Shown here: positions 1,047 through 20,000 of the stretch, piece by piece
Layout: each line of letters opens with the position of its first letter
Position numbering within the stretch: position 1 is the stretch's first letter
Source of the DNA: an uncultured virus (IMG/VR IMGVR_UViG_3300010347_003641)
Taxonomy: Duplodnaviria; Heunggongvirae; Uroviricota; Caudoviricetes
DNA: 20,000 nt
Virus record (IMG/VR): IMGVR_UViG_3300010347_003641
Direction: 5' to 3' (one strand)
Notes under the pieces: generated by a model
Database searches by the model: none
The model's input: only the letters and a program-made list of their open reading frames with translations
What the model was told of the DNA's origin: nothing
Made by a program: the position numbers and the translations under genes

Positions 1047-1517
1047 ATGGAAGACTTTGAAACCGATAGCAGACAAGATAGACTCATACTGGAACTTCAA
1101 AGAGAAATAGACAAGCTAAAGGAAGACGTCGAATACCTGAAGAACTCATACGCTTCGCAGGCTTTGAGTATCGACTGCCTCTTCAAAAAGCTGGACGAAC
1201 TCCAGAAAGAAACGAACAGCCTGAAAATGCAGGTGATTGGACTCGTAGATAAATTCGACGAATTGCGAGACCACATCGACGGGAAATGGAAAACCGATCT
1301 CCTCGCGAAAATGGTTGACTCACTCCAGCTAACGCAGAACCATTTGATTGAAATGATGAAGGACGTGTCGAAATCGCAGGCCAACCTCGCCGAATCTGTA
1401 AACGACAACAAGACGAAAGTGAGGATAAGAACGTTCGACTTCTGGCTCAAACTCTTCGCCGGCGGTGGACTTCTCTACTTCGTCATAGAAAAAATTCTCT
1501 CGCATCTACTAAAGTAA
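1047..1517 (+). CDS. Coiled-coil protein with C-terminal transmembrane helix (156 aa; XhlA/BhlA-like holin-type topology)
   Basis: The true start is probably ATG 1047, with GAGGA at 1038-1042, rather than the track start at 960. The body shows a heptad pattern and the C-terminus is hydrophobic (FWLKLFAGGGLLYFVIEKIL). A holin role is inferred from topology only. Confidence 0.65.
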   Translation: MEDFETDSRQDRLILELQREIDKLKEDVEYLKNSYASQALSIDCLFKKLDELQKETNSLKMQVIGLVDKFDELRDHIDGKWKTDLLAKMVDSLQLTQNHLIEMMKDVSKSQANLAESVNDNKTKVRIRTFDFWLKLFAGGGLLYFVIEKILSHLLK

Positions 1518-1893
1518 TTCTATTAAGCATTTTATAGGCAACGGTGTTCGAAGAGTCTTCGATGGATACCGTTGCTTTTCTGTCTATGACTTCGTAATAG
1601 GCTATCCATTCGTACTCTCTTCTCTGCTCGGGACTGTAAGTGTATTTTATTCCGTCAGTTTTCGAGAAGACGTATATCAGGAACTCTTCGTCGGATATCT
1701 TCTTCGCGACTGCGAGATAACCCGGCTTCATGTTGATGGAGCGTTCGTAAATAGTCCTGTATCCGCACGACGTTTCGAGAATGCCCGGAAATTCTATCTC
1801 CAACTTCACACGCATGACAGCATCGACCTTCTGCTGAACTTCTCGAATGTCGATACTTGGACCTTCAAGTTTTATGTAGATTTTGTCTTGCAT
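1483..1893 (-). CDS. Hypothetical protein (about 136 aa)
   Basis: The ORF fills the gap between two + strand genes and has protein-like composition. ATG 1893 has a GAAGG 7 nt upstream. The track start at GTG 1935 lies inside the putative promoter. The 3' end overlaps the neighbouring + strand gene convergently by 35 nt. Confidence 0.65.
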   Translation of the reverse strand: MQDKIYIKLEGPSIDIREVQQKVDAVMRVKLEIEFPGILETSCGYRTIYERSINMKPGYLAVAKKISDEEFLIYVFSKTDGIKYTYSPEQRREYEWIAYYEVIDRKATVSIEDSSNTVAYKMLNRITLVDAREFFL

Positions 1894-1925
1894 GTCTTTG
1901 GCCTTCACTAGCATCACCGAAATAA

Positions 1926-1951
1926 ATTTTATCACTTTTTCAACATGTCAA
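1926..1951 (-). promoter_or_regulatory. Putative extended -10 promoter for the leftward hypothetical gene
   Basis: The minus strand reads TTGACA-tgttgaaaaag-TGA-TAAAAT. This gives a TGn-TAAAAT extended -10, with a TTGACA at a non-canonical 14-nt spacing. Confidence 0.4.
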
Positions 1952-1976
1952 AATACCTTCGAAAGGGAGTGAGCGT

Positions 1977-2198
1977 GTGTTGAAGTCGAGAGAAGAAATA
2001 GGCAAAAAGGTACGTGCGCAGATGAGAATGCGCGGCATATCGGAGTATGATATGTTCTCGATCACGGGTATCGACCCGGCGAGGCTTTCCGAGATCTGTT
2101 TCGAGACGGCGAAAAACGAAAGCAAGGAACCTACGGCCATTGAGCTTTTACAGATATCGTCGGCGCTCGGGCTGAAGCTAGAAGATATTATCAAATAA
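1977..2198 (+). CDS. XRE/Cro-like helix-turn-helix protein (73 aa)
   Basis: Sequence pattern IGKKVRAQMRMRGIS..MFSITGIDPARLSEI...KEPTAIELLQISSALGLKLEDII is typical of HTH_XRE. An SD-like AAGGGAG lies upstream of the GTG start. Confidence 0.8.
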   Translation: MLKSREEIGKKVRAQMRMRGISEYDMFSITGIDPARLSEICFETAKNESKEPTAIELLQISSALGLKLEDIIK

Positions 2199-4953: not shown

Positions 4954-7900
4954 ATGACGCCTATAAGGCTAGTAGATGGTCAGGAGTTACAGGCATTCAG
5001 CCAGGGGAACGGAAGAGTTGCGATACTGAAGACTTTAGAGGACAGGTTTGTAATAAAATTTGGATCGACGGTGGGTTCAGCGATCGAAGTGTTCTCCGTG
5101 TCCAATTCTGCAAACGACGTCGTGTTAGCGTCCGGCGTTGACCTTCTTTTCGACGGGGCAGCGGCAACGATAGGCGGAAACATTCCATCGTCTATAACGC
5201 TCGGAAAGGCGGGCGACACTATAAACCTGAACGCTGCCGGCGTAACGTACAACTTTCCTACGTCTGGAACTCCGTACCTCATGCTCACGGGCGGTGTTTT
5301 AACAGGAAACTTAGTGCTGGACAAGGCGGAACTTCATTTCAACTCAGCGTCAGCAGATGCTCAGACAGAAGTAGCACTCAAGGTCGATGGCGAGGACTTC
5401 GTCATATTCGAGCCGGAAGAATCCAACAGGGAATGGTTGCGCATAAAAGACACCGGCGAATCCGATCCGACGAACGCCATGAAACTCTTCGGCTGGAACG
5501 TGTGGCACACAGGAAACCTCACGCCTTCCAATTATCTCCCTCTTGCCGGCGGCACGTTGTCTGGATCGTTGAACATGAACAACAACACCCTCCAGCTTTC
5601 CGCCGACGATTACATCCTTGCGGGGAACGCGAGCTACTCGCAGGCGGGAATATGGATAAGTTCGGGACAGGACATAGCCTTCAACATTAACAGCAACGGT
5701 GCCGGAGCAGATAGCTTTCAGGTGTTCGAAGGGAGTACGCCGACCTCTCTGTTCCAGATAAGGACTGACCTGTTCAAATACAAGACTTACGACATATGGC
5801 ATTCTGGCAATTTCAATCCGGCCTCTAAATCAGACGTGCATTCTCACCCGTACATGCCAGACACTCACGACGCTTCGGCGGTAACTTCTGCGAAAATAAC
5901 AAGCTGGGACGCGGCCTATGCCCATTCGCAAGCTTCACACGCAAGGACAGATGCAACTCTCGTGCAGAGTTCTTTGACTAACGGGAACATAAAAATAAAC
6001 GGCACGGAAACCACCGTATATACACACCCTACCGACGCCGGAAACAAGCACATTCCCGCCGCAGGGGCGTCGGGTAATTTCCTGAAATACTCGTCTGCCG
6101 GCACAGCCACCTGGTCAACTCCCGCGATAGCAGATATAACCGGTCTTCAGACCGCTCTGGACGGAAAAGCGCCGACGCATACGCACCCATACCTCGCCGA
6201 TTCGCATGCGGCCAGCGGAGTTACAACGGGGAAGATCGCCAATTGGGACACGGCTTACACGCACTCGCAAGCAACGCACGCAAGAACAGACGCAACGCTT
6301 ACGCAAAGCTCGTCCACGAATGGAAATATAAAGATAAACGGCACAGAAATCACAGTCTATACGCACCCTTCTACTGACGGAAACAAGCACATTCCGAGCG
6401 GCGGTTCTGCCGGGCAATTCGTAAAATATTCCTCCGCAGGTACTGGAGCATGGGCCACGCCGGCGATAGCAGATATATCAGGCTTGCAGACCGCTCTCGA
6501 CGGGAAGGCTGCGAGTTCTCACAACCATTCTGCCGCCGATATAAATGCCGGAGTTCTTCCTGCGAGTTACGGCGGAACTGGATTGACTAGCATAGCGACT
6601 CTTCTCAATACAAACAATACATTAGATACAGTTCTCGCAAACGGGAACACAAGCTCGAATACGATGGTCGTAGGAAGGTATTTACAACAGGCCACTGGCG
6701 TTCCAACGGAGAACATCGGTTCTCCGTCTCTTGCGGAAATGGCGCTTTTCCAGCAGCAGTTCGACAATAAAACGTGGTTCTATCCAACGGACATGTTCAC
6801 GTTCGAATACACGAACGACGGGACGACGTGGATCAACGCGAATGTGCCTGCTTCCGAGATAAAGAAATTCGTCAGCGGATATTACAGTGCAACGATAAAC
6901 ATTCCGAACGGCTGCCAGAAATACAGGATACAGATCTACAACAAGAATACTTATGTGTACGTGAACGCCCTGTACATATACGCATCTGCAGCCGGTCATA
7001 GCACGAAGATAAAAATAAGGAAGAGAGATGTAATAAGTCAGGCCTGGTCGTACCACACCAACTCTGAAAGCACAGTCGGCGGTTGGCCGGCTCACTGGTA
7101 TCTTCCGTTCGCTGGAATACCATGGAGCAGATCCGCAAGCACAGGAATGTGCGATTACGTCGAAATAGAGTTTACGCCAGTGTGGAATGCAACATACCCT
7201 TCCAACGTGATAACGTTATACAACTTGGATCTTTGGGGCGGATATCCGGCAGGCACAAGAAGTTTGTTCGCATGGGATGGAGATAGGAACGCAACATTTC
7301 CAGCCCAGCTCAAAGCGAGCGAGCTTTACGAAGGAGCAAACAGAGTTTACAGTCCTAACAACACAAACATAGGAACCGGCGCTACAAACTACGCAGCCGG
7401 AAACGATTCGCGGTTTCACTCGAATGCCAACGATCCGACGAGCGACCAGAAGGCGGCCCTTGCCGGCACTTCTGGCACTCCGTCGAGCACGAACAAGTAC
7501 GTAACCAATGGAGATAGCAGATTGTCCAATTCCAGAACCCCGACGGCGCACAAATCGACTCATGCCTCCGGCGGTTCCGATCAGCTCACGCCTGCCGACA
7601 TAGGCGCGGCTCCAGCTCACACGCACCCGTACCTCTCCTCGTCCGGCGGAACTGTATCCGGCGACTTGACAATCACAGGGAACCTGACTATCAGCGGAAC
7701 GTCAACGACGATAAACACAGAGACCATCAACCTCGCAGACAACATAATCGTGCTGAATTCCAACTTCGCAGGCACGCCTTCCGAGAATGCCGGAATGGAA
7801 ATAGAAAGAGGCACATCTGCAAATGTTGTCTTGAGATGGAACGAAACGGCCGACATTTGGGAAGTCACCAAAGACGGCACCAATTACTACACAATACTCG

Positions 7901-9726
7901 ATTCCTCGCACGCGGCGAATGGAGTTACAAGTGGCAAGATTACCAATTGGGACGCAGCTTACACACACTCTCAGGCAACACATGCCCGTACAGACGCAAC
8001 GCTCGTTCAATCGTCGGCAACAAACGGAAATATAAAGATAAACGGCGCAGAGACAACCGTTTATACACACCCGAGCGGAGCCGGGAACAACCACATTCCC
8101 AGCGGCGGAGCTGCGAACCAGTTCCTACAATACAGCGCGTCTGGTGTTGCTGTCTGGAGTTCAGTAGATTGGTCCGAACTCTCCGGCAAACCTTCGACAT
8201 TCGCCCCGTCAACTCATACGCATGCAATAGCTGACACAACAGGACTCCAGGACGCGTTGAACACGAAATCCGACGTACACACGCACCCGTACCTGTCCAG
8301 TTCCGGCGGCACTATAACAGGAGACCTGCAATTAGACGCAGCCAACAACGACAGATATATAGTCTTCAACTATACAGGGAGCGCTGGATTCAGTTGGCGG
8401 CTTGGATACATAGGAACTGGAAGTGGCGACGCAAATTACTTCGCTATAGACACCAGCGGCGAAGACGGTACGTGGGCCAGGGCGTTGGAAATAGGACTTA
8501 CGTCAAAAAAGACGGACTTCAAAACTACCCCCTCCGTAAACGGAACACTTTTGTCTCTCTCAAACCACACGCATTCGGCCGTCACAACGTCTGTAGCAGG
8601 ATTCATGAGCGCGGCCGACAAGACAAAACTCGACGGAATAGCCACGAACGCGAATAATTATTCGCACCCAACGGGCGACGGGAATTTGCACGTGCCGGCA
8701 ACTTCTACTACAAACAACCTCAAGGTGCTTAAAGCCGGAGCGACTGCCGGCTCAATAGCGTGGAGCGATGTAGATTGGGCCGAATTAACCGGAAAACCTT
8801 CGACCTTCGCTCCTTCGGCGCACACGCACACGAAGTCTCAAATAACCGATTGGTCGCACGAGCATGCGATAAACATAGGGAACGGCGCGGCCACACAGAT
8901 ATCCCTGAATACAGGCAGTCGGTTGGATATCGTCGCGGGAACAGATATATCCATAGCCTACGACGACGCAAATGACAAGGTAACGATATCGAGCTCTTAT
9001 TCTCACCCTAGTGGTGCCGGATACAACCATATTCCTAGCGGTGGAGCGGCCAATCAGTTCCTTCAATACAGTTCATCAGGAGTCGCCGTCTGGAGTTCCG
9101 TCGATTGGTCTGAACTTTCCGGTAAACCTTCGACTTTCGCTCCTGCGACTCACTCTCACGCGATAGCAGATACTACGGGTCTTCAGGCTGCTCTGGACGG
9201 AAAAGCGCCAACACACACACACCCGTACCTTTCTGATTCGCATGCAGCCAGCGGAGTTACGACCGGAAAAATCACCAATTGGGACACAGCTTACACCCAT
9301 TCTCAAGCTTCGCATGCGTACCTGCCTCTTGCCGGAGGCACGATGGCTTCGAATGCCGTGATTGTGTTCCCCTCCGAGCAGAGGCAGAAGATAACCCTGT
9401 ACGCAGCTAACAGTTGGCACACGATAGGTACGGAAGCGTATCACATAGCGTACGGCGGATACCACAACGCGGCGGGATCTCACGAAGGTCATAAGTTTTA
9501 CACGGCGCCTTCGAACCTTGCAGCTCAAATAGGGTCTGGAACGTCGAATTCAGCATCAGGATACACCAACTCGAAGAACTCGAAATTCTTCGGCACAGTC
9601 GATTTTGCGGAGAGCACTAACACAGTTGGAGACGCCAACATAGGCGGCAAAGCGACGATAGCCTCGAAATTTGCGATAGAGTACAACGAGGATATGAACG
9701 CCCTCGACTTCAATTACATAGGTTGA
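4954..9726 (+). CDS. Long phage tail fibre protein 1 (1590 aa)
   Basis: Contains many fibre motifs (YLPLAGGT, HTHPYL, ITGLQTALDGKA, WSELSGKPSTFAPSTHTH, AGFMSAADKTKLDGIA) and an embedded NAGMEIERG..RWNETAD domain. SD GGAGG sits in the last codons of the previous gene. Confidence 0.9.
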   Translation: MTPIRLVDGQELQAFSQGNGRVAILKTLEDRFVIKFGSTVGSAIEVFSVSNSANDVVLASGVDLLFDGAAATIGGNIPSSITLGKAGDTINLNAAGVTYNFPTSGTPYLMLTGGVLTGNLVLDKAELHFNSASADAQTEVALKVDGEDFVIFEPEESNREWLRIKDTGESDPTNAMKLFGWNVWHTGNLTPSNYLPLAGGTLSGSLNMNNNTLQLSADDYILAGNASYSQAGIWISSGQDIAFNINSNGAGADSFQVFEGSTPTSLFQIRTDLFKYKTYDIWHSGNFNPASKSDVHSHPYMPDTHDASAVTSAKITSWDAAYAHSQASHARTDATLVQSSLTNGNIKINGTETTVYTHPTDAGNKHIPAAGASGNFLKYSSAGTATWSTPAIADITGLQTALDGKAPTHTHPYLADSHAASGVTTGKIANWDTAYTHSQATHARTDATLTQSSSTNGNIKINGTEITVYTHPSTDGNKHIPSGGSAGQFVKYSSAGTGAWATPAIADISGLQTALDGKAASSHNHSAADINAGVLPASYGGTGLTSIATLLNTNNTLDTVLANGNTSSNTMVVGRYLQQATGVPTENIGSPSLAEMALFQQQFDNKTWFYPTDMFTFEYTNDGTTWINANVPASEIKKFVSGYYSATINIPNGCQKYRIQIYNKNTYVYVNALYIYASAAGHSTKIKIRKRDVISQAWSYHTNSESTVGGWPAHWYLPFAGIPWSRSASTGMCDYVEIEFTPVWNATYPSNVITLYNLDLWGGYPAGTRSLFAWDGDRNATFPAQLKASELYEGANRVYSPNNTNIGTGATNYAAGNDSRFHSNANDPTSDQKAALAGTSGTPSSTNKYVTNGDSRLSNSRTPTAHKSTHASGGSDQLTPADIGAAPAHTHPYLSSSGGTVSGDLTITGNLTISGTSTTINTETINLADNIIVLNSNFAGTPSENAGMEIERGTSANVVLRWNETADIWEVTKDGTNYYTILDSSHAANGVTSGKITNWDAAYTHSQATHARTDATLVQSSATNGNIKINGAETTVYTHPSGAGNNHIPSGGAANQFLQYSASGVAVWSSVDWSELSGKPSTFAPSTHTHAIADTTGLQDALNTKSDVHTHPYLSSSGGTITGDLQLDAANNDRYIVFNYTGSAGFSWRLGYIGTGSGDANYFAIDTSGEDGTWARALEIGLTSKKTDFKTTPSVNGTLLSLSNHTHSAVTTSVAGFMSAADKTKLDGIATNANNYSHPTGDGNLHVPATSTTNNLKVLKAGATAGSIAWSDVDWAELTGKPSTFAPSAHTHTKSQITDWSHEHAINIGNGAATQISLNTGSRLDIVAGTDISIAYDDANDKVTISSSYSHPSGAGYNHIPSGGAANQFLQYSSSGVAVWSSVDWSELSGKPSTFAPATHSHAIADTTGLQAALDGKAPTHTHPYLSDSHAASGVTTGKITNWDTAYTHSQASHAYLPLAGGTMASNAVIVFPSEQRQKITLYAANSWHTIGTEAYHIAYGGYHNAAGSHEGHKFYTAPSNLAAQIGSGTSNSASGYTNSKNSKFFGTVDFAESTNTVGDANIGGKATIASKFAIEYNEDMNALDFNYIG
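5839..6516 (+). repeat. Tandem 339-bp (113-aa) coding repeat in fibre 1, with further copies at about 7900-8290 and 9001-9320
   Basis: HSHPY...WDAAYAHSQASHARTDATLVQSSLTNGNIKINGTETTVYTHP...GLQTALDGKA starts at 5839 and recurs as HTHPY... at 6178. Confidence 0.9.
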
Positions 9727-9730
9727 TAAC

Positions 9731-12598
9731 ATGAGTCTAATCGCTTGGTACAAACTCGACGGCAACGCCAACGACAGTTCTGGAAACAACAGGCATTTAA
9801 GTACGATATCTGCGACATACAGCGCCGCCGGCAAGATAAACGGCGCATATTCTTTCGCTTCCGGCAACAGAATCTATTCGTCAACCGGCATGGACTTCCC
9901 TGCGATCGTCTCGGTGTCGGCGTGGGGGTATTCGACGTCTTTCGACAACAACCCTATGCTTTTCTCGTTCAATTCGCCTTCGTTCGCCGGACCGGATCTT
10001 TTCTTTTCAACCGCCTCTTCCACGATATGCTGGAACGTCGGGGACAGCGCCACATCTGCCTTTAAGATCAGCGGAACGAACGTCTCGTTTCCAAGCGTCA
10101 ACGAATGGCATCATTACGTCGTACTCAACGACGGATTCAGGAACAAGGCATATCTGTATATCGACGGAGTCTATAGCGGCGAGACTACTTACAGAAACAC
10201 CACTCAGGCCAATAGGGGCTTTACCATAGGTAATTACCACCCTGCTTCCTCTTCGTATGCCTGGCGAGGTATGATAGACGACTTCAGGATATACGACCAC
10301 ATATTGTCCGAACGGGAGATAAAAGAGCTTGCGAAGGCGAAGGTTCTTCATTATTCGTTCGACGACTTTCAAAGGCCGACTGTTAATCTAATAACCAATC
10401 CCACCAGAGAGGTAGTTGGGACGTACGAATTCGTGCAATACATAGATCTTGCACCAATTTTCGACACTTACGGCACCGACAAGCCGTATTCTCTCTCCCT
10501 CGACATGAAATCCGCCGACACGTCCAATACTATTAACGTTCTTGTTTATATGCAAAACGGCTCTAACACCAGATACACGTTTGTGAACACGTATGTAGGA
10601 GTTTCCGAGTATTATAGCCGATACGAGTTCTCGGATTTGACTCCGGTCCTTGCCAATCCTGGCGTTACTCAAGCTATGCTGGCATTCTACGGAACGTACG
10701 GTACAGGGAATTACCCTTCGATAAAGAACGTTCAACTGGAGATGACAAGATACTGCACTCCGTTCGTTGACGGTTCGCGGCCCGGAATCGTTAAAGACCA
10801 GTCGGGATTCTCTAACGATGCAGAGCTTGAAGCCGCTTCTTCTCCGGAGCACACTACGTTCAGCGCCATCGGGAGCGGTGCGTACTACTTCTCCGGGGAT
10901 GCTCACATACATCTGGCGCAATCGCCGATTGCGGATCTGAACGGCGATTTTTCGGTTAGCGTGTGGATACGAGCTACCGATGTTTCGACAGACAACACGT
11001 GGCAAAGACGTATATTGGGGATAAACGGTTCGAGCGCCGGCAAGTTCGACCTCTCGATGTTCGAAAGCGGCGGCATAGCTATACGCATAAACGAAACGCC
11101 ATATACCACTCCTGCCGTATCGCTGCTTTACGACTGGCATCACATCGTATTCACAAAATACGGAACTACCTACAAGGTTTATATAGACGGGCAGGAACAG
11201 ACGTTGACGAACACGGGGCTTGGGTCACATTCAACATATCCCGGGGTGCTGATCGGAAGAGCTTATTATTCTTCCATATTCCGCGGCGGTTTCATCGGAT
11301 TGATAGACGACGTGAGAATATATTCGACTGCGCTTTCCACGAGCGACGTGTTTACGCTTTATCGCACGCGTGCTTCGCTTAACGCAAACGGTCTTTTGCT
11401 CACGCACGAATTGAACGAAGAACGCTTCAACAGATGCCCGCCCTTCGAAGACTGGACCATGTACGGAAATGCGCATGTAGAAAACGGCGAGCTTGTGATC
11501 CCCGACTATTCCTCTTATGCCATATCGCCGTACATGTACATCGGTCAAGACACCAACTGGTATTGGGGCGCCGAATGGTTTGCTACACAGCAGAGCAACT
11601 ATGCGTCTTATCAGCCGAACGCCGGTTTTCTAATGGGTTCGTCGTACTACAATAGCGATTTCGTACTTACTCCGAATACGGCCGATTACACCGGGAACGG
11701 TCATGCGAACAGTTATCCGGTGAACCAATGGACAGCAAAATACTGGAGCGGCAACGGCGGCAACGATGTGCAATACTTAAAACTCCAGATATCCGGCAGC
11801 TCCACATATGCGCAGGCCTCGGGGTTCAGAGTCAGAAGACCAACCGTTTCTATCGTATCTTACACCGACGACGAATACATACCGTTCTCGAACAATATTC
11901 TCGATTACTATTATTCCACAAACCAGCAATTACGGTCATCTGGTATATTAAACGCGCAAAGCTTTTCGGAAACAGGTGTAACTGACGGTCTGATCGGTTG
12001 GTGGCCTTTCGACGGGAACGCGAACGATCTCTCGTTTTCGAAAAACGACGGAACAGTAAGCGGCGCATCGGTGGCCGTCGGAACGTTCGGCAAGTGTTAT
12101 TCCTTTGATGGGACAGACGATTATATACAGATAAACAGCGTGAACGTAGAAACCGTCAACGCGATAATCGACCTCAACAATGTCTCGGCCGTGCAATACT
12201 TTTTCGGAAGCGCTACAGCGAGCAGAGGCATAAGGTACAACGGAGAAACGTTTTTGGTGTTCGGTGAAACGGCGGGAAGCTCCGCGATTCCGTGGACGAA
12301 AGTCGCCGGATTTGTCATGTTCACCGCCGCAAGGAGCGGTTCCGACTGGAAACTGTACATAAACGGAAGCTTGATAGGCACGGCGACAGGGGCAGGCGCG
12401 TTGAGCATAAACAGGATCGGTAGAAGATCGGACGGGTACTACTTCAACGGAAAGATGCGAGATGTCCGTTTCTACAACAGGGCATTGACGGCGGCCGAGA
12501 TCAATGTTCTTTACGATATGCTCTTTACTAACAACAAGATGAAGATAACAAAACACGGAGTGTACGTCAGTGGAGAATTCGACGAGACGCTGCTATGA
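9731..12598 (+). CDS. Multi-LamG (concanavalin A-like) domain virion protein (955 aa)
   Basis: Three LamG-like domains (LIAWYKLDGNANDSSG...GMIDDFRIYDHILS; ...GLIDDVRIYSTALS; LIGWWPFDGNAND...GKMRDVRFYNRALT) are interspersed with CBM-like beta sandwiches. Confidence 0.88.
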   Translation: MSLIAWYKLDGNANDSSGNNRHLSTISATYSAAGKINGAYSFASGNRIYSSTGMDFPAIVSVSAWGYSTSFDNNPMLFSFNSPSFAGPDLFFSTASSTICWNVGDSATSAFKISGTNVSFPSVNEWHHYVVLNDGFRNKAYLYIDGVYSGETTYRNTTQANRGFTIGNYHPASSSYAWRGMIDDFRIYDHILSEREIKELAKAKVLHYSFDDFQRPTVNLITNPTREVVGTYEFVQYIDLAPIFDTYGTDKPYSLSLDMKSADTSNTINVLVYMQNGSNTRYTFVNTYVGVSEYYSRYEFSDLTPVLANPGVTQAMLAFYGTYGTGNYPSIKNVQLEMTRYCTPFVDGSRPGIVKDQSGFSNDAELEAASSPEHTTFSAIGSGAYYFSGDAHIHLAQSPIADLNGDFSVSVWIRATDVSTDNTWQRRILGINGSSAGKFDLSMFESGGIAIRINETPYTTPAVSLLYDWHHIVFTKYGTTYKVYIDGQEQTLTNTGLGSHSTYPGVLIGRAYYSSIFRGGFIGLIDDVRIYSTALSTSDVFTLYRTRASLNANGLLLTHELNEERFNRCPPFEDWTMYGNAHVENGELVIPDYSSYAISPYMYIGQDTNWYWGAEWFATQQSNYASYQPNAGFLMGSSYYNSDFVLTPNTADYTGNGHANSYPVNQWTAKYWSGNGGNDVQYLKLQISGSSTYAQASGFRVRRPTVSIVSYTDDEYIPFSNNILDYYYSTNQQLRSSGILNAQSFSETGVTDGLIGWWPFDGNANDLSFSKNDGTVSGASVAVGTFGKCYSFDGTDDYIQINSVNVETVNAIIDLNNVSAVQYFFGSATASRGIRYNGETFLVFGETAGSSAIPWTKVAGFVMFTAARSGSDWKLYINGSLIGTATGAGALSINRIGRRSDGYYFNGKMRDVRFYNRALTAAEINVLYDMLFTNNKMKITKHGVYVSGEFDETLL

Positions 12599-12607
12599 GA
12601 AGGTGCG

Positions 12608-15600
12608 ATGATGGCAAAGCTTGCTAGTACGACTATATACGGCGACTTGAACGTCAGCGGAAAGATAAGGGGCGACGGCGTTTTGGTTTCCGGCGTAGAT
12701 GCCGACAAACTCGACGGTAAGCATCTCACCGACCTGAAGATAACAGTTACCGGAGCCGTAACCGCTTCGCAGATAGCCTTCGGGTCCGACGGCACCGTTA
12801 CGTTGAACACTTCTCTGTCAACTCATACGCACGACGATCGCTATTACATAGAAAGCGAGATAGACAGTCAGATGGCCGGCAAGTCTGACGTCGGACACAC
12901 GCATTCATACCTACCTCTCGCAGGTGGAACCATGTCAGGCGCTATTGCGATGGGAAGTAACAACATAAGCGGTGCAGGTACGGTGTCGGCAACTACGTTC
13001 CAGGAGAACGGAACGAACCTCGCTTCTAAATACCTCGGTATCGCGGCAAAAGCAGCCGATTCCGACAAACTCGACAACATAGACTCTACGGGGTTCCTTC
13101 GAATAATAACCGACGGGACGACCGACAAGGTTACGATCAGCAACAGCAAATTCGGAGTGGTTGGCGGCTCCAACATATCCATAACATACGACGATACGAA
13201 CAAGAAGATAACGATAGCAAACACTTATTCGTATTCTCACCCGACTGGCGACGGTAATTTACACGTACCTGCCACCAGCACAACAAACAACACCAAGGTT
13301 TTGAAGGCCGGTTCCACAGCCGGTTCGATTTCGTGGGGAAGCGTCGATTGGACCGAGCTAACGAACAAGCCCTCAACTTTCTCGCCTTCTTCACACAATC
13401 ACCCTAACACAGAGATAACTGGCCTCGGGGGAGCTGCAACTCTCAACGTTGGAACAGCGGCCGGCACCGTTGCCGCCGGAAACGATTCGCGTTTCCACGC
13501 CAATACGAACGACCCGACTGCCGATCAAAAAGCGGCCCTGACCGGTACGAGCGGCACGCCGAGTTCAACGAACAAGTACGTTACCAACAGCGATAGCCGT
13601 CTGTCGGACGCTCGCACTCCAACTGCACATACTCACGTAAAGAACGATATAACCGACTTCACGCATACTCATTCTGACGCCACAACGTCTGTTGCAGGAT
13701 TCATGAGCGCTGCCGACAAGACGAAACTTGACGGCGTAGCAACTAACGCTAATAACTATACGCATCCTACTGGCGACGGAAATCTACACGTGCCGGCCAC
13801 AAGCACCACGAACAACACCAAGGTATTGAAAGCAGGAGCTACCGCAGGCTCTATGGCGTGGGGAGTAGTTGCGTATTCAGAACTGAGCGGTGTTCCTACA
13901 ACATTCGCTCCGTCCGCTCACAAGACTTCTCATGCCAGCGGCGGCGGAGACGCTTTGACGCCAGCCGATATAGGGGCTGCAGCCGCTTCTCACGGCTCTC
14001 ACGTTCCAACAGGAGGAACGTCAGGTCAGTATTTGAAGCAAGGCAACTCGTGGTCAACAATAACTATATCAGAAGTCTCTGGTTTACAAGGCGCCCTCGA
14101 CGGAAAAGCTGCAACATCTCACAATCACGATACTGTATATCCTTCGATGAATTCAACAAGTGTAGATGCAGATACAATAACAAGAAGCGGATTTTATCAC
14201 TGCAATGCCAATGTTCCTACGACCGACGGCGAATCAGACAAGGCGATTATTCACAATCAATACGGTCCGTCTTCAGTTTGGGCTACGCAGATCGCCATAT
14301 CTTGGCGCAACGGACGAATGTGGTTCAGAAACAAAGAAAACGGAACATGGGAATCTTGGCAGGAAGTGTCGAAAGAACATTCGCACCCTTATCTTTCGAA
14401 TTCCGATTCAAGAATAGCGCAATGGGAATCGGCGTACACTCATTCCACATCGTCGCATCTCGCTCTTGGCGAAACCTCTTCGACGGCTTATCAGGGCGAC
14501 AGAGGAAAGACTGCATACAATCACTCTCAAGAGGCTCATGCAAGAACTGATGCCACGCTTACTGAATCTTCTCTTACAAACGGAAACATCAAGATAAATG
14601 GAACAGAAACTACCGTTTACACACATCCTACCGGAGACGGGAATCTGCACGTTCCGGCGACTTCTACAACTAATAACACGAAGGTATTGAAAGCCGGCGC
14701 AACAGCAGGATCTTTGTCCTGGGGCGTTGTGGCATATTCAGAACTTTCTGGTGTTCCTTCGACATTTACTCCCTCTTCTCACAATCATCCAAACACTGAA
14801 ATAACAGGTCTTGGAGATTCGGCTACGAAGAATGTCGGAACGGCTTCTGGCACAGTGGCCGCCGGAAACGACTCTCGATTCCATTCAAATGCGAACGATC
14901 CCTCTGCCGATCAGAAGGCGGCGTTGGCCGGAACGTCAGGAACTCCGTCGGACACAAACAAATACGTAACCAACGACGATAGCAGAATGACCAATGCGAG
15001 AACGCCTTCTTCTCACGGTAACGAAGCTCACTCTTCGACATTCGTTACTCAAACGGAGATAACAAACAGCATATCTACTCATGCGGGCAACGCCACCGTA
15101 CATCACTCGAACGCAAATGATCCGACTGGTGATCAGAAAGCGGCTTTGGCAGGTACGTCCGGTACTCCTTCATCGACGAATAAGTACGTTACGGACGGCG
15201 ATTCCCGGCTTTCCGACGCAAGAACGCCGACTTCTCACGGCAACGACAAGCACTCGGCAACGTATGTAACACAAACAGAGATAAATACAAGCATATCAAC
15301 ACACGCCGGTTCCGCAACGGCACATCATTCGAACGTAAACGACCCTTCGTCTGATCAAAAAGCGGCTTTAGCTGGTACTTCCGGCACTCCGTCCGGCACG
15401 AATAAATACGTTACCAATGCCGACTCGAGGTTATCCGACGCTAGAACACCGACTTCTCATACTCATCCAAATACAGAGATAACTGGTCTAGGGGATTCCT
15501 CGACAAAGAACGTCGGGACGGCAACCGGTACAGTCGCCGCAGGAGACGACGCCCGTTTCCACTCGAATGCAAACGACCCTACGAGCGACGAGAAGGCGGC

Positions 15601-16609
15601 ACTAGCTGGTACCGGAACTCCGTCAGGCACAAACAAATATGTCACGAACGACGATTCGAGACTATCGGACTCAAGAACTCCGACGACTCACAACCACGCC
15701 GCCGGAGATATAAACAGCGGAACACTAGGCGTCGCAAGGGGCGGTACTGGAATAGATTCCTACACGGCGAATAACTATTTAAGAGCGTCTGGATCGACTA
15801 CACTAGAACAGAGAACGCCGTCCCAGGTGTTGTCGGATATAGGAGCTGCGGCGGCGAGTGATTTAACTGGTCACATAAACTCGCAACTTCACATTCCGAC
15901 CTTCGGAGCCAATGAATTAAATTACGTGTTGTCTGTAATAGGTAACGATCCGCTATATTCGACGGCTTGGATGGAACTGAACAAAAATAGAGTAGGATTA
16001 CCAAACGTTGAAGATTACGGTATAGCCTCTCAAGTGGAAGCGGAAGCTGGAACGTCTTCAACTAAATACATGACACCACTGAGGACAAAACAAGCGATAG
16101 CAGCGTTACAAGCAGTATCGAGCGTTGCGGGTAAAACGGGAGCGGTAACTCTGTCCGCTTCAGACGTAGGAGCTGCTGCAAGCGATCATACGCATACTGG
16201 TTATTTAGCATCTTCGGGCGGAACGCTTACTGGAAACATGAATTTCGCCGATTATCTAGCACAAAGTCCGGAGATAAAAGATTACTCTGAAACCGTTAAA
16301 GCTCAAGGTACAACTGGAGGAGCTAAAACAATAAACATAGAAGACGGCAATGTTCATACGATAACACTTAGCTCCAATACTACTTTTACGTTTAGCAATC
16401 CGTCAGCTTCAGGAAAGGCCTGTTCTTTGACTATTATTTTAACTCAAGGTTCGACGGTGAGCTCTGTAACGTGGCCGGCTTCGGTAAAGTGGCCTGATGG
16501 AAATGCCCCTAGTCTCGCAGGAGCTAGCACCACTTATGTGCTATCTTTTCTCACAATCGACGGTGGCACCACGTGGTTTGCGTGGTTTTTAGGGAGTGCT
16601 TTTGCATGA
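12608..16609 (+). CDS. Long phage tail fibre protein 2 (about 1333 aa; start at 12608 or 12611)
   Basis: Motifs DADKLDG, HTHDDRYY and YLPLAGGT, with many HxH motifs. A knob-like domain (SGFYH...QIAISWRNGRMWFRNKENGTWESW) lies at about 14150-14370. The C-terminal beta domain reads GNVHTITLSSNTTFTFSN...TWPASVKWPDG.APSL...TIDGGTTW. Confidence 0.9.
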   Translation: MMAKLASTTIYGDLNVSGKIRGDGVLVSGVDADKLDGKHLTDLKITVTGAVTASQIAFGSDGTVTLNTSLSTHTHDDRYYIESEIDSQMAGKSDVGHTHSYLPLAGGTMSGAIAMGSNNISGAGTVSATTFQENGTNLASKYLGIAAKAADSDKLDNIDSTGFLRIITDGTTDKVTISNSKFGVVGGSNISITYDDTNKKITIANTYSYSHPTGDGNLHVPATSTTNNTKVLKAGSTAGSISWGSVDWTELTNKPSTFSPSSHNHPNTEITGLGGAATLNVGTAAGTVAAGNDSRFHANTNDPTADQKAALTGTSGTPSSTNKYVTNSDSRLSDARTPTAHTHVKNDITDFTHTHSDATTSVAGFMSAADKTKLDGVATNANNYTHPTGDGNLHVPATSTTNNTKVLKAGATAGSMAWGVVAYSELSGVPTTFAPSAHKTSHASGGGDALTPADIGAAAASHGSHVPTGGTSGQYLKQGNSWSTITISEVSGLQGALDGKAATSHNHDTVYPSMNSTSVDADTITRSGFYHCNANVPTTDGESDKAIIHNQYGPSSVWATQIAISWRNGRMWFRNKENGTWESWQEVSKEHSHPYLSNSDSRIAQWESAYTHSTSSHLALGETSSTAYQGDRGKTAYNHSQEAHARTDATLTESSLTNGNIKINGTETTVYTHPTGDGNLHVPATSTTNNTKVLKAGATAGSLSWGVVAYSELSGVPSTFTPSSHNHPNTEITGLGDSATKNVGTASGTVAAGNDSRFHSNANDPSADQKAALAGTSGTPSDTNKYVTNDDSRMTNARTPSSHGNEAHSSTFVTQTEITNSISTHAGNATVHHSNANDPTGDQKAALAGTSGTPSSTNKYVTDGDSRLSDARTPTSHGNDKHSATYVTQTEINTSISTHAGSATAHHSNVNDPSSDQKAALAGTSGTPSGTNKYVTNADSRLSDARTPTSHTHPNTEITGLGDSSTKNVGTATGTVAAGDDARFHSNANDPTSDEKAALAGTGTPSGTNKYVTNDDSRLSDSRTPTTHNHAAGDINSGTLGVARGGTGIDSYTANNYLRASGSTTLEQRTPSQVLSDIGAAAASDLTGHINSQLHIPTFGANELNYVLSVIGNDPLYSTAWMELNKNRVGLPNVEDYGIASQVEAEAGTSSTKYMTPLRTKQAIAALQAVSSVAGKTGAVTLSASDVGAAASDHTHTGYLASSGGTLTGNMNFADYLAQSPEIKDYSETVKAQGTTGGAKTINIEDGNVHTITLSSNTTFTFSNPSASGKACSLTIILTQGSTVSSVTWPASVKWPDGNAPSLAGASTTYVLSFLTIDGGTTWFAWFLGSAFA
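14894..15690 (+). repeat. Tandem coding repeat (about 74-78 aa) in fibre 2
   Basis: NDPxxD[QE]KAALAGT(S)GTPSxTNKYVTxxDSR..RTP begins at 14894, 15116, 15338 and 15572 (spacing 222, 222, 234 bp). Dispersed copies begin at 13508 and, in fibre 1, at 7429. Confidence 0.92.
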
Positions 16610-17538
16610 TTGCTAATAACATAAAGAGATTTTATAAACAAGGAAACATAACTGATTGTGTGTATTTCGTTGTTCAAGACGGCAAGGTCCGCAAATTGAA
16701 GGCGTCCAACGGAGACTTGTTATGGACTTCCTCTTCTCTTGGAACAAACTACAACTATGCTCTAGCGACCGATCCTAGTGGCTACGTTTATGGAGGCGGA
16801 TCGGCAAACATAGTTAGAAAAATAGATCCGTCTGATGGTTCTTTTGTGTGGTCCAAAGACTTAGGTCAAACAATTAGGTGGATCTACTGTGACTCTAACG
16901 GTTATGTATATGTGGCTTATGCGAGCGGTTTTGCATGCAGGCTGAACCCTAGCAATGGAAACATTGTGTGGACAAGCAGCGATTATGGAAATTATAGCAA
17001 TGGAATATGTTGCGATGAGAACTACGTGTATTTGGCTGTTGATACTAGCATTAAAAGGCTTTCTATTTCAAATGGTAGTCTAGTTTCAAGTTCTTTTGCC
17101 GCAATGAGTGTTACCATGCCTGCTGGAGGCACCGTCAGCATAGGATCGTCTTCCAACAAAATAGCTTTTGGCGGGAACACTTCTACGCTTAAAATATACG
17201 ATACAGGAGACCATTCTAACATCGATGTCAGCGTTGGAGATCATATCAATAATGCTGTTTGTGCGTATGGTAGCGATTATATGTATGTCAATCCATACAA
17301 CGCATATGTAAAAAAGATCAATGTTAGTGACGGATCAATAGTATGGACAAGCAGTAAAATAGCTACTTATGGATACGGCGCAACGGTGGACGAAGACGGT
17401 TATGTGTATGTCGGCGGACGAGATGGAAAAATCAGAAAGCTGAACCCAAGCAATGGTTCAGTTATATGGACGACTCCGTCTTATCAAGCTACAACATATG
17501 AATGTGTTCTAACCACTCCATATTGTTCAAGTTGGTGA
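16606..17538 (+). CDS. PQQ-like beta-propeller protein (310 aa), probable receptor-binding adhesin
   Basis: The start overlaps the fibre 2 stop as ATGA (16606-16609), with GGGAG upstream. Blades repeat as YVY(V/G)...VRK(L/I)xPSxGxxxWTS, about 6-7 times. Confidence 0.8.
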   Translation: MIANNIKRFYKQGNITDCVYFVVQDGKVRKLKASNGDLLWTSSSLGTNYNYALATDPSGYVYGGGSANIVRKIDPSDGSFVWSKDLGQTIRWIYCDSNGYVYVAYASGFACRLNPSNGNIVWTSSDYGNYSNGICCDENYVYLAVDTSIKRLSISNGSLVSSSFAAMSVTMPAGGTVSIGSSSNKIAFGGNTSTLKIYDTGDHSNIDVSVGDHINNAVCAYGSDYMYVNPYNAYVKKINVSDGSIVWTSSKIATYGYGATVDEDGYVYVGGRDGKIRKLNPSNGSVIWTTPSYQATTYECVLTTPYCSSW

Positions 17539-17919: not shown

Positions 17920-18147
17920 ATGTTCAACAAAAACAGTGCGCTCGTCAAGGTTTGGATCAAGTGGTATGACGAAAAGAAAACTACGGCGGAACAGATCCCG
18001 AATCTGTATAATCTCCGTGAAGTTATAAAGGAAATACTTGTTAATAGAGCTATTGAGGGGCTAGACGCCGGCGAAATTACAATCGACGACGTAACTACGG
18101 ATTTGGGAGTTAAAGAAGCCGTCGAATCCATTGTCGCGGCAAGATAA
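17920..18147 (+). CDS. CD1375/XkdX-like small phage protein, apparently two tandem units (75 aa)
   Basis: SD GGAGG. LVKVW......TAEQIPNLYNLREVIKEIL is followed by a second unit, AIEGLDAGEITIDDV..LGVKEAVESIV. Confidence 0.7.
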   Translation: MFNKNSALVKVWIKWYDEKKTTAEQIPNLYNLREVIKEILVNRAIEGLDAGEITIDDVTTDLGVKEAVESIVAAR

Positions 18148-18156
18148 GGAGGACGT

Positions 18157-18309
18157 ATGTTCAATAAGACAAGCGGGATAGTTAAGACCTGGGTAGCGAT
18201 GATACTGATAGGAATATATTCGTTTGACGATGTTCCGAAGCTGTTGAATCTTCGGACGGCGGTCGGCGAAGTCCTCGATCTCGTCGGTATTCCTCACGGT
18301 GAAGCGTAA
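18157..18309 (+). CDS. CD1375/XkdX-like small phage protein (50 aa), not in ORF track
   Basis: Strong SD AAGGAGG. Hand translation MFNKTSGIVKTWVAMILIGIYSFDDVPKLLNLRTAVGEVLDLVGIPHGEA is clearly paralogous to the 17920 gene (MFNKNSALVKVW...IPNLYNLREVI). Confidence 0.85.
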   Translation: MFNKTSGIVKTWVAMILIGIYSFDDVPKLLNLRTAVGEVLDLVGIPHGEA

Positions 18310-18424
18310 TTCGTTTCTCGTGAAGATAACGGTAATGCTCGTATTGCTAGGGGCATGGCCGTTCAGATTGGTGCCGAAGAAGGGTACGGCGAGAAGAATC
18401 CTCGAAGAAATAGGTTATAGATAA
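18299..18424 (+). CDS. Third CD1375/XkdX-like paralog (41 aa), not in ORF track
   Basis: The GTG start overlaps the end of the previous gene. MKRNSFLVKITVMLVLLGAWPFRLVPKKGTARRILEEIGYR aligns to the paralogs (NSxLVK; VMLVLLGAWPFRLVPK vs VAMILIGIYSFDDVPK). The stop abuts the terminator. No clear SD. Confidence 0.65.
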   Translation: MKRNSFLVKITVMLVLLGAWPFRLVPKKGTARRILEEIGYR

Positions 18425-18447
18425 AAGCCCCTCAACGGGGCTTTTTT
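18423..18447. terminator. Bidirectional intrinsic terminator
   Basis: AAAAGCCCC-tcaac-GGGGCTTTTTT lies exactly between convergent genes. Confidence 0.9.
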
Positions 18448-18715
18448 AATGTATGTTAACCGTCTTTGCTTCTTGCCGGGCTCTACGTTCTCGTTCTCTC
18501 TTCTCGTCTTCGGCGTTGAATATCGCAGCTACCCGTTTTCGTCCTTCCTTCAGCATCTGCGTACTTACCAATGCGATGAGTTCTTTGTCGTTTATTTTCT
18601 TGTTCGGATAGGCGGCTCGATACTCGATCATCATTTGTTCGAACCCTCTCACGAAAACGTCATCGACATGGTCGTTCAAGAGGTTGTTAGAATCTTTGAT
18701 AGCCTTTCTTTTCAT
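18446..18715 (-). CDS. Hypothetical helical protein (89 aa)
   Basis: SD AAAGGGGG upstream of the ATG. The ORF ends at the terminator and has a charged, helical C-terminus. Confidence 0.75.
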   Translation of the reverse strand: MKRKAIKDSNNLLNDHVDDVFVRGFEQMMIEYRAAYPNKKINDKELIALVSTQMLKEGRKRVAAIFNAEDEKRERERRARQEAKTVNIH

Positions 18716-18872: not shown

Positions 18873-19241
18873 TTATTCGACTTTACTCAGAGCGAATCGC
18901 CGGACTCCAGGCCAGTTGTTTGTTCTACAAAGACGTGCGATAATCGCATATACAGATATATCGTCGTAAGTATCCTCTATCGCTTCGTTCTTCGCTTCTT
19001 TGTTTGCGAATACCAGATTCAGCAAACGTTCGAATTTATCGTTCATTCTAATTATAGTCCCAATTTCCCCGAATTTTGCGATGTTGTCTGGACCGTAGTC
19101 TAATTGCTTCGAGATGAATACTTGGGATAATTCCAATTGTCTATCTATAAACTGTTCAAACAACTTTTTCTGTTGTGGCGAACAGAGTTCTATTGTATTG
19201 AGTATCGTAGAGAGTTTTTCTAGCAACCCGGTATTTCCCAT
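18873..19241 (-). CDS. DUF1599 / nucleotide modification associated domain 1 (Nmad1)-like protein (122 aa)
   Basis: Signature KQLDYG.DNI..FG..G..IRMNDKFERL.NL....NEAIEDT..D...YAII. SD AAAGGAGG. The start overlaps the upstream stop (TAATG). Confidence 0.85.
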   Translation of the reverse strand: MGNTGLLEKLSTILNTIELCSPQQKKLFEQFIDRQLELSQVFISKQLDYGPDNIAKFGEIGTIIRMNDKFERLLNLVFANKEAKNEAIEDTYDDISVYAIIARLCRTNNWPGVRRFALSKVE

Positions 19242-19999
19242 TATACAGTTCCTCCTTTTATTCTATCAATCTTTTTCGTCGTGAACTTTACGGTCAATAA
19301 CTCAAACGTATTATCCGAGCAATACACTCCGGCTGTTTTTCCAATGAAACCCTCTGCGTCGAAGACCATTTCGTTATATAATTCAGAACCTTCTTTTACA
19401 ACCAGAGAAACTTGTGTACCTTCCTTGTCTTCGGCAGTTACGTTCGTTAACTCTCCGCTTTTTACAGTAATTTCCTTTATCCGAAGATTTAATCTCGAAT
19501 TATCTTTGACGAGAAACAATCCGCCGGAAGGACCCGCAGCGTACGGAGCCGACGTGTCCCGAAGTACAATTGAATCGTGGCCTAGCTGGTAGAAGGAATC
19601 GAGACACAGAAGAACGGAATGCTTGTCCCTGACTATCTCATAACCTTCTTCGGTATTTCGTATATGGGAATCTCGTAATAACTCTTCGTTTTTCAGAAAG
19701 AAGCTCTTTCGCTGGAGAGAACGCTGGTAATACGAAAGGGTGGGCGTCGATACATAGTCCATGACGTAAAGTATAGAATTATTGGCCGTAAACGGTTCCT
19801 CTTCGTTGGCTACCATGAGTTCGCCTTCGAGGAAGAACGGTGTGGTTACGGGGATCTTTGAAAGCAGATCGCCCCAGGCCTCTTCGAGTTTTTCTAGCCG
19901 GCGTCCGCTCTGCGAATATATAGAAAAGCCGGAATCGAATATTATACGGCATCTCGGGCCTTCGTAGCACGGAGTTATTACGTAACCCTTTCCGTATTC
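19241..19999 (-). CDS. ATP-dependent DNA ligase-like protein with substituted catalytic residues, 5'-truncated by the window edge (at least 252 aa)
   Basis: The frame is open from 19999 to the track start at 19816 and adds EYGKGYVITPCYEGPRCRIIFDSGFSIYSQSGRRLEKLEEAWGDLLSKIPVTTPFFLEGEL. Ligase-like motifs appear in order: I PCYEGPRC, Ia YSQSG, III LEGEL, IIIa YVMD, IV HDSIVLR..APY, V LFLVK, then an OB-like region with FIGK. Confidence 0.75.
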   Translation of the reverse strand, partial: EYGKGYVITPCYEGPRCRIIFDSGFSIYSQSGRRLEKLEEAWGDLLSKIPVTTPFFLEGELMVANEEEPFTANNSILYVMDYVSTPTLSYYQRSLQRKSFFLKNEELLRDSHIRNTEEGYEIVRDKHSVLLCLDSFYQLGHDSIVLRDTSAPYAAGPSGGLFLVKDNSRLNLRIKEITVKSGELTNVTAEDKEGTQVSLVVKEGSELYNEMVFDAEGFIGKTAGVYCSDNTFELLTVKFTTKKIDRIKGGTV

Positions 20000-20000
20000 G

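Follow-up and report, generated by a model that had tools for sequence, protein, structure and literature searches.

The window analyzed here, meaning the whole 20,000-nt stretch of the uncultured virus record IMGVR_UViG_3300010347_003641 and not one gene alone, ends within a minus-strand gene whose predicted product resembles a minimal ATP-dependent DNA ligase with a cysteine (Cys28) at the position of the motif I lysine, and which is referred to below as the pseudo-ligase. The open reading frame (ORF) at 19241-19999 translates without a stop and remains open at the window edge. A metagenome locus (L007), identical to the window over an exact run of 3538 bases, contributes the absent 5′ end and yields a full-length ORF of 269 aa (L007:8001-8810), of which 17 N-terminal codons lie outside the window. 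The initial annotation had described an ORF that reaches the window edge with no stop or frameshift and had proposed that its remainder be sought in adjacent sequence; the translation agrees with this description, and the identical L007 copy supplies the remainder as an uninterrupted 269-aa frame. The start codon of the pseudo-ligase, which lies on L007, overlaps the stop of an upstream 105-aa ORF, while its stop codon TAA and the downstream ATG have one base in common (TAATG at 19241), so that the coupling to a neighboring gene that had been suggested is also seen in the sequence. The Cys28 codon is TGC, at 19967-19969.

A word-index search of 5.8 billion proteins returned three proteins (P0001-P0003), with 72-100% identity to the query. 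These fall into three lineages: P0003 belongs with L007 to the window type, P0001 to the L001/L008 type, and P0002 forms the third. The motif I remnant PCYEGPRC is present in all of them. The residues of the active site were compared in a MAFFT alignment of the three family members with 59 true ligases, for which the residue numbers are those of the PBCV-1 ligase. The gene and the motifs recognized within it are as follows.

19241..19999, minus strand: pseudo-ligase gene; residues 18-269 of the 269-aa protein and the TAA stop, with the 5′ end past the window edge
19949..19972, minus strand: motif I remnant, P27-C28-Y29-E30-G31-P32-R33-C34, aligned under PKIDGVRG; ligases K 59/59, D 59/59, G 59/59 and R 58/59, family C, E, G and R 3/3
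19895..19909, minus strand: motif Ia region, S48-G49-R50-R51-L52; SGRRL under GRSLK (hhalign, MAFFT), with R50 at PBCV-1 R42, a column with R in 59/59
19817..19828, minus strand: motif III, E75-G76-E77-L78; EGEL under DGEL, with D65 replaced by E and E67 kept
19757..19768, minus strand: motif IIIa, Y95-V96-M97-D98; F98 column with F in 59/59, here M in the window type and T in both remaining lineages; D99 retained
19559..19582, minus strand: motif IV, G157-H158-D159-S160-I161-V162-L163-R164; GHDSIVLR under GYEGxILR, with E161 replaced by D, G162 replaced by S and R166 kept
19526..19549, minus strand: A168-P-Y-A171-A-G-P174-S175; K173 replaced by A, I or V and R176 by P; ligases K 59/59 and R 56/59
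19505..19519, minus strand: motif V, L178-F-L180-V-K182; LFLVK under LRIKR, with K186 replaced by L and K188 kept; ligases R/K 59/59 and K 59/59
19280..19495, minus strand: short beta-barrel resembling an oligonucleotide/oligosaccharide-binding (OB) domain, residues ~186-257, from model strands and OB-type matches; no recognizable motif VI

In the aligned ligases K27, D29, F98, E161, G162 and K173 are each present in 59/59 sequences, K186 is R or K in 59/59, and D65 and R176 are found in 58/59 and 56/59, respectively. In the pseudo-ligase family these positions are occupied by C28, E30, M/T97, D159, S160 and A/I/V171, by L180, and by E75 and P174. Outside the family the motif KxDGx[RH] is kept by 120 of the 120 listed ligase relatives, and judged by sequence the pseudo-ligase would fall outside the ligases at this defining motif I lysine. 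We take F98 to be the adenine-stacking Phe, and K173, R176 and K186 presumably make contact with the nick or with the phosphates of the nucleotide; for F98, K173 and R176 these roles are said to come from mutational work in the Shuman laboratory. The equivalents of G30, R32, R42 (as R50), E67, D99, Y109, R112, R166, G175 and K188 are retained. The losses differ in kind: all five acidic positions of the pocket remain acidic (E30, E75, E77, D98 and D159), three of them as D/E swaps, whereas three of the four basic residues counted (K27, K173 and K186) are lost and K188 is kept, with R176 lost in addition. A review describes the motif I lysine as the carrier of AMP, the motif I Arg and the motif III Glu as contacts of the ribose, and the motif V lysines as contacts of the AMP phosphate (PMC7470946).

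Changes in the architecture accompany those in the pocket. Motifs III and IIIa are separated by 20 residues in the family and by at least 33 in 59/59 ligases, so that the loop is 13 residues shorter, and the OB part comprises 80-84 aa compared with a ligase median of 122 aa, a difference of ~40 residues. No motif VI is recognizable in the C-terminal part when aligned with ligases; MAFFT sets TVKF under the ligase KPRF there, a weak placement. Across the ligase columns conserved at 90% or above, the family keeps the ligase residue in 17/42. The isoelectric point (pI) of the family members is 5.15-5.93, compared with a ligase median of 7.18 (range 5.53-9.08). Residues invariant in the family and specific to it are C34, H144, C149 and H158.

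Most motif readings of the initial annotation hold in this alignment. The reading of motif I as PCYEGPRC with Lys replaced by Cys stands, those of motifs III and IIIa agree with the MAFFT columns, and the model gives an OB-like C-terminal part, in which no motif VI is recognizable. For motif Ia the proposed SQSG (19904-19915), with Arg replaced by Gln, lies three residues off register; in both hhalign and MAFFT R50 falls in the invariant Arg column, and the motif Ia Arg is therefore kept. Motif IV was read correctly, although the loss of its Glu is softened by the conservative replacement with Asp, and in motif V (LFLVK, also read correctly) Leu has replaced just the first of the two basic residues, the second, a Lys, being kept. 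Among annotated phage ligases, those of Caulobacter phages Quill_5.2 (L004 543-1430) and BL199 (L006 473-1369) read KNDGCC at motif I, with the Lys kept and Cys at the Arg position.

The pseudo-ligase protein is a very distant relative of the minimal ATP-dependent DNA ligases of Chlorella virus type, which consist of a nucleotidyltransferase (NTase) domain and an OB domain. This assignment rests on the agreement of PHROG 114, hhalign, a ligase hidden Markov model (HMM) tested against shuffles, tblastn, language-model neighbors and a fold search, which together uphold the ligase-fold descent put forward in the initial annotation. The PHROG 114 (ATP-dependent DNA ligase) profile matches residues 25-212 with E 2.2e-6 (~27 bits; window fragment E 2.7e-6) and the L001 copy with E 1.7e-9 (31.4 bits), matches that are weak and come from a collection without curated cut-offs. 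Alignment of the family with 60 small phage-type ligases in hhalign gave E 4.5e-5 over residues 48-194, with a probability of 68.8%. An HMM of the 60 ligases scored the three family members at 11.7, 16.8 and 13.5 bits, compared with a maximum of 7.9 among 3000 shuffles. With tblastn against 50,697 phage records (E up to 10) there were 10 weak matches, 8 of them within genes annotated as DNA ligase and the other 2 in records that lack annotation. In the ESM Atlas, six of the seven rows listed for the nearest clusters carry a DNA-ligase Pfam family, mostly viral PF01068 (scores 0.96, 192/256 features shared). The comparator ligases are themselves of the Chlorella virus type, as their profile matches the PBCV-1 ligase with E 5e-69 and 7obn with E 2e-80. 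P0001 additionally has a weak match to PRK09125 (NCBIfam, E 0.019). Megablast, and tblastn at E 1e-5, found nothing in the phage collection, and phmmer against 1.84 billion cluster representatives recovered only the cluster of the pseudo-ligase itself. The profile searches against ligase families that had been suggested as a check were thus positive for PHROG 114 and hhalign and below threshold for Pfam.

Comparison of the lineages indicates that the gene is maintained. The window and L001 types are identical in DNA over codons 1-59, so that the conservation of Cys28 between these two is not independent. P0002 is independent in this respect: its N-terminal 59 residues differ from the window type at 9 positions, and C28 is kept. 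Between the window type and P0002, 37/42 residues are identical at positions 18-59 and 81/126 at positions 60-185. Over codons 60-265, the proportion of nonsynonymous differences between the window and L001 types (pN) is 0.214 and that of synonymous differences (pS) is 0.762 (saturated), giving a pN/pS of ~0.28, and the ratio of substitution rates (dN/dS) in the OB part is 0.24; with pS well above pN, the gene is under purifying selection. The view that this is a maintained protein and not a decaying pseudogene, and the accompanying proposal to look among homologs for conservation of the Lys to Cys change at a dN/dS below 1, are both supported by C28 in 3/3 lineages, by these ratios and by the intact frame in independent metagenomes.

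Sludge, wastewater and bioreactor metagenomes dated 2016 to 2025 contain the stretch, in 20 rows that come from 13 studies; five of these rows are possibly its source. Runs X6 and X8 carry the window allele with zero differences within the gene. Runs X8 and X11 carry a second allele, identical over 19874-20000 and thereafter of the same length but diverged, which is dominant in X11 at a depth of 16.3; the two alleles occur side by side in both of these runs. No variant of the Cys codon occurs in the three independent DNA runs X6, X8 and X11. The runs listed as containing the stretch include none classed as RNA; in X20, labeled 'RNA? (probably DNA)', it is represented by a single 151-base contig. 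The change between alleles is abrupt and maps to one further feature of the gene:

19871..19876, minus strand: recombination junction at codons 59/60; DNA on the 5′ side identical in the two alleles, DNA on the 3′ side ~35% diverged

The same transition is seen between L007 and L010, which have 2 differences in 8000 upstream bases and then ~35% divergence from codon 60 through the neighbor gene. A scan of genome contigs gave no prophage copy. One candidate homolog from the metagenome scan (L009, 27% identity) was rejected as spurious, since the match is antisense to a 377-aa bacterial ORF.

A structural model was calculated with AlphaFold2 (AF2) from a merged alignment of 62 rows, comprising 3 family rows and 59 ligases. 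The model has a mean predicted local distance difference test score (pLDDT) of 76.2 and a predicted template modeling score (pTM) of 0.74; its ligase fold is partly imposed, because 59/62 alignment rows are true ligases. The modeled NTase domain matches Pmar-Lig with Z 17.5 (2.3 Å over 171 residues), the African swine fever virus (ASFV) ligase with Z 16.5 and the PBCV-1 ligase with Z 15.3 (2.5 Å over 163 residues). In Foldseek the top matches of the model are all ligases (best E 8.9e-12), and for residues 183-257 the matches are small barrels of OB type (Z 6-7). Values of pLDDT are below 50 at residues 226-236 and 258-269. The proposed check with AlphaFold and Foldseek accordingly returned ligase NTase and OB matches, from a model built on a ligase-dominated alignment.

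The gene lies among phage genes. The window is phage DNA; the proteins encoded in it include PhoH, giant tail-fibre-like proteins, a structural protein with lectin domains and a beta-propeller protein. The two genes that follow the pseudo-ligase on the same strand are:

18873..19241, minus strand: downstream coupled gene, 122 aa, DUF1599 (Nmad1)-like; TAATG overlap; phrog_1485 E 8.6e-14
18446..18715, minus strand: next same-strand gene, 89 aa; no family match

The 122-aa neighbor has a Pfam score of its own below threshold (E 0.012), while its relatives P0126 and P0127 carry PF07659, which is DUF1599 or 'nucleotide modification associated domain 1'. Among its distant relatives, P0129 and P0130 are 211-aa proteins with PF14359 and PF24963, which points to nucleotide metabolism. 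The pseudo-ligase and the DUF1599-like gene are also adjacent in L001, and probably in the third lineage too, as P0002 and the neighbor's homologue P0125 share a longest contig of 33,511. Complex prediction for the pair gave a score of 0.00, a value with no bearing either way on binding.

Upstream of the pseudo-ligase, L007 encodes a tyrosine integrase, a zinc-finger (FCS/TRASH-like) protein, ParA and several ORFs without assignment. The integrase (1466-2113, minus strand) and the ParA-like partition ATPase (3825-4649, plus strand) lie a few kb from the pseudo-ligase, and their presence suggests a temperate or plasmid-like lifestyle for a phage of ~100 kb. A related contig of 99.9 kb (G001) is myovirus-like and estimated to be 65% complete. 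It encodes two clamp homologues, a primase, a RecD/Dda-like helicase, a UvsX-like recombinase, an SbcD-like phosphoesterase, a RuvC-like resolvase, NrdD and four methyltransferases, and the pseudo-ligase stands at the end of this DNA-metabolism module. The clamp homologues match phrog_947, DNA polymerase processivity factor (L013 3725-4810 and L014 2711-3931), and no DNA polymerase was detected on the 99.9 kb. The search for a canonical ligase, which the initial annotation had suggested, is answered in part: no PF01068, PF01653 or second PHROG 114 match occurs on the 99.9 kb of this 65% complete contig, so that the phage must either rely on the ligase of its host or encode one in the part beyond the contig. 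A scan for promoters and terminators gave counts at the level of shuffled sequence.

Comparison with known systems places the protein between working ligases and ligase folds that have taken other roles. The PBCV-1 ligase and small phage ligases (PF01068 and PF14743; Stenotrophomonas phage Yut1; PDB 1fvi, 2q2t and 7obn) have the same NTase and OB plan in ~300 aa, compared with 269 aa, and their motif order I-Ia-III-IIIa-IV-V is also that of the pseudo-ligase; they differ in having the motif I Lys, F98, K173, R176 and K186, a longer III-IIIa loop and OB domain, and a recognizable motif VI. Snurportin-1 is a non-catalytic cap binder, and its m3G-cap-binding domain, which has the NTase fold, matches the model with Z 13.1 (3.0 Å over 162 residues); unlike the phage protein it is a eukaryotic nuclear import adaptor. 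Lig E and other minimal bacterial ligases (PDB 4d05, 6gdr and 8u6x; PRK09125) likewise consist of NTase and OB domains without extra DNA-binding domains and match in Foldseek with E 2e-9 to 4e-8, but they are reported to keep the catalytic lysine, unlike the pseudo-ligase (PMC6144786). PDB entry 9hu3, titled 'PR1 phage heterodimeric DNA ligase', was also among the matches of the NTase-fold model (chain E, Foldseek E 3.2e-8; chain A, VIA Z 9.1); it would be a close functional precedent if one of its subunits were non-catalytic. Literature searches found no description of a phage pseudo-ligase or of a heterodimeric phage ligase.

The closest parallel is the poxvirus A20 protein (OPG148), a replication processivity factor that is described in a preprint as an inactivated derivative of a DNA ligase with a disrupted catalytic site (bioRxiv 10.1101/2022.11.22.517515). 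A20 and the pseudo-ligase are alike in being viral proteins with a ligase adenylation-domain fold and a disrupted site, A20 having been kept for a non-enzymatic role in DNA replication. Chain B of a monkeypox polymerase complex (8wpf_B) matches the model with Z 8.4. The differences are also clear: A20 derives, by the same account, from NAD-dependent ligases and belongs to a eukaryotic virus, whereas the pseudo-ligase, of the ATP-dependent Chlorella virus type, is a much smaller protein that retains an OB-like domain and in which Cys is fixed at the position of the lysine. Its modeled fold, the disrupted site and the purifying selection estimated from its alleles would together place it with exapted ligases of the A20 type. 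Inactivated ligase and NTase folds with new roles are already known, and the literature searched gave no phage example.

Taken together, these results make it very probable that the gene encodes a ligase-derived, non-ligating and maintained phage protein. The gene combines purifying selection with the loss of the motif I lysine and of four other conserved positions for catalysis or binding. Without the motif I lysine no lysyl-AMP intermediate would be formed, and since no lysyl-AMP would be possible we infer that the protein does not seal nicks. Because R33, R50, E77, R164, K182 and the five acidic positions are retained, we propose that the remodeled cleft may still bind a ligand non-covalently, whether nucleotide-like, phosphorylated or a DNA 5′-phosphate end. 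The pseudo-ligase would then serve, without catalysis, as an accessory factor in the phage module for DNA replication, recombination and nucleotide metabolism, possibly acting jointly with the co-translated DUF1599 protein, and would be comparable to A20 as an inactivated ligase that serves its replisome. Such a maintained, non-catalytic binder, working through the old cleft as an accessory factor, is the overall explanation that we favor with modest confidence; binding through the old cleft, as the specific mechanism, is put forward more tentatively.

Several observations weigh against this reading. DNA binding is disfavored by the shorter III-IIIa loop, the absence of K173 and R176, the reduced size of the OB domain and the acidic pI, and this loss of DNA-contact elements together with the acidic charge is the main weakness of binding through the cleft. 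The F98 and K173 positions vary within the family, in a manner that resembles decay of a nucleotide pocket, and invariant positions are not enriched in ancestral conserved columns (20/30 versus 90/176, Fisher p 0.17). The family consists of three lineages only, at 65-71% identity, all from sludge-type metagenomes. The homology signal is weak overall, as reflected in the hhalign probability: neither the fragment nor P0003 has a significant Pfam or NCBIfam match, the gathering scores of PF01068 and PF14743 not being reached, and the PDB, searched by sequence with both the protein and the family profile, gave no ligase, only chance-level matches such as sulfatases and an aminomethyltransferase. 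A low-confidence register from a permissive hhalign run places R33, and not C28, opposite the motif I lysine. AF2 on a four-row alignment of the family alone gave a pLDDT of 38 and was discarded, and the model from the merged alignment is best regarded as nearer a homology model than an independent test of the fold.

The acidic pI, the lost DNA-contact elements and the short OB domain would suit a pure protein-protein adaptor, in which the ligase fold serves as a scaffold with a functionless cleft and bridges phage or host replication and repair proteins, such as clamp homologues or the host ligase. The variability at the F98 and K173 positions, the lack of significant extra constraint on ancestral columns, the two clamp homologues encoded by the phage and the precedent of A20 are consistent with this. 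Yet at residues 60-185, 15/18 ligase-conserved columns are family-invariant, including the substituted E75, D159, S160, P174 and L180, and the hairpin of motifs I and Ia (residues 18-59) is more conserved towards P0002 than any other part; an adaptor is moreover without a known partner, and we consider it unlikely. The protein could instead be an enzyme with new chemistry, in which Cys28 would act as a nucleophile, or as a metal ligand with H158 and acidic residues, on a nucleotide or on DNA, for example through a covalent Cys-nucleotide intermediate or in a modification step shared with the DUF1599 protein. C28 is fixed in all three lineages, the pocket stays acidic and retains one Lys of motif V along with the Arg and Glu that contact the ribose, C34, H144, C149 and H158 are invariant, and the family of the neighbor is named for nucleotide modification. 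Set against this are the loss of the residues at K173, R176 and K186 and of a recognizable motif VI, and the fact that invariance among just three lineages is weak evidence; we also know of no precedent for a Cys-nucleoside monophosphate (Cys-NMP) intermediate in the ligase/capping superfamily. On what the sequences suggest, new chemistry would be distinctly improbable.

A still-working DNA ligase, adenylylated on another lysine or by another route, would explain why K182, the motif I Arg, the motif Ia Arg and the motif III Glu are retained and why no other ligase was found on the related contig. Such an enzyme lacks an evident acceptor, as the motif I loop is lysine-free whichever register is taken, P0002 has Arg in place of K21, and of the lysines before residue 115 only K8 and K54, the nearest, are invariant in the family. 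The changes at five further conserved catalytic or binding positions, the absence of a recognizable motif VI and the unbroken retention of KxDGx[RH] among the listed relatives all speak against ligation, and with the contig 65% complete the phage may encode a true ligase elsewhere or draw on that of its host; we regard a working ligase as very improbable. Still harder to credit is a decaying pseudogene, or a chance resemblance to ligases. The very small size of the family and the blank Pfam and PDB sequence searches would fit such an origin, but pN/pS is ~0.28 with pS saturated, three lineages and runs dated 2016 to 2025 all keep an unbroken frame, translational coupling is seen on both sides of the gene, and several independent homology signals agree.

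If the favored reading of a maintained non-catalytic accessory factor is right, the pseudo-ligase would be a bacteriophage counterpart of A20, a replication or repair enzyme turned non-enzymatic helper. The motif I lysine defines the covalent nucleotidyltransferases, and a relative selected with Cys in its place would offer a natural test of what the rest of the fold can do, be it nick or nucleotide binding, partner recruitment or other chemistry. Chemistry at Cys28, if true, would give the ligase and capping-enzyme superfamily a catalytic mechanism that is new to it. In practical terms, pipelines based on PHROGs could mis-annotate the family as 'ATP-dependent DNA ligase' and wrongly credit the phage with a ligase of its own. 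The general impact is moderate, because the family is small, with three lineages that all come from sludge-type metagenomes, and its function is a prediction from sequence; the Lys to Cys replacement is striking and easy to test.

Further genes of the window and of the related contig stand apart from the pseudo-ligase. In the window, two tail-fibre-like proteins of 1590 and 1333 aa are encoded on the plus strand at 4954-9726 and 12608-16609 and share matches to phrog_38707 and to a phage tail repeat; the gene between them, at 9731-12598, has a 955-aa product that contains three Laminin_G_3 lectin-type stretches. The tail-fibre genes are followed directly by a gene for a 321-aa PQQ/BamB-like beta-propeller protein, at 16573-17538 (plus strand). 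Tandem small paralogues of 75 and 50 aa, both phrog_5056, follow at 17920-18147 and 18157-18309 (plus strand), with a third small ORF next to them at 18299-18424. On the related contig, a 1964-aa ORF (L011 2226-8120, minus strand) has zero PHROG matches, and a 1676-aa protein (L012 11254-16281, plus strand) matches phosphatase and GTP-binding-domain families at its C-terminus.

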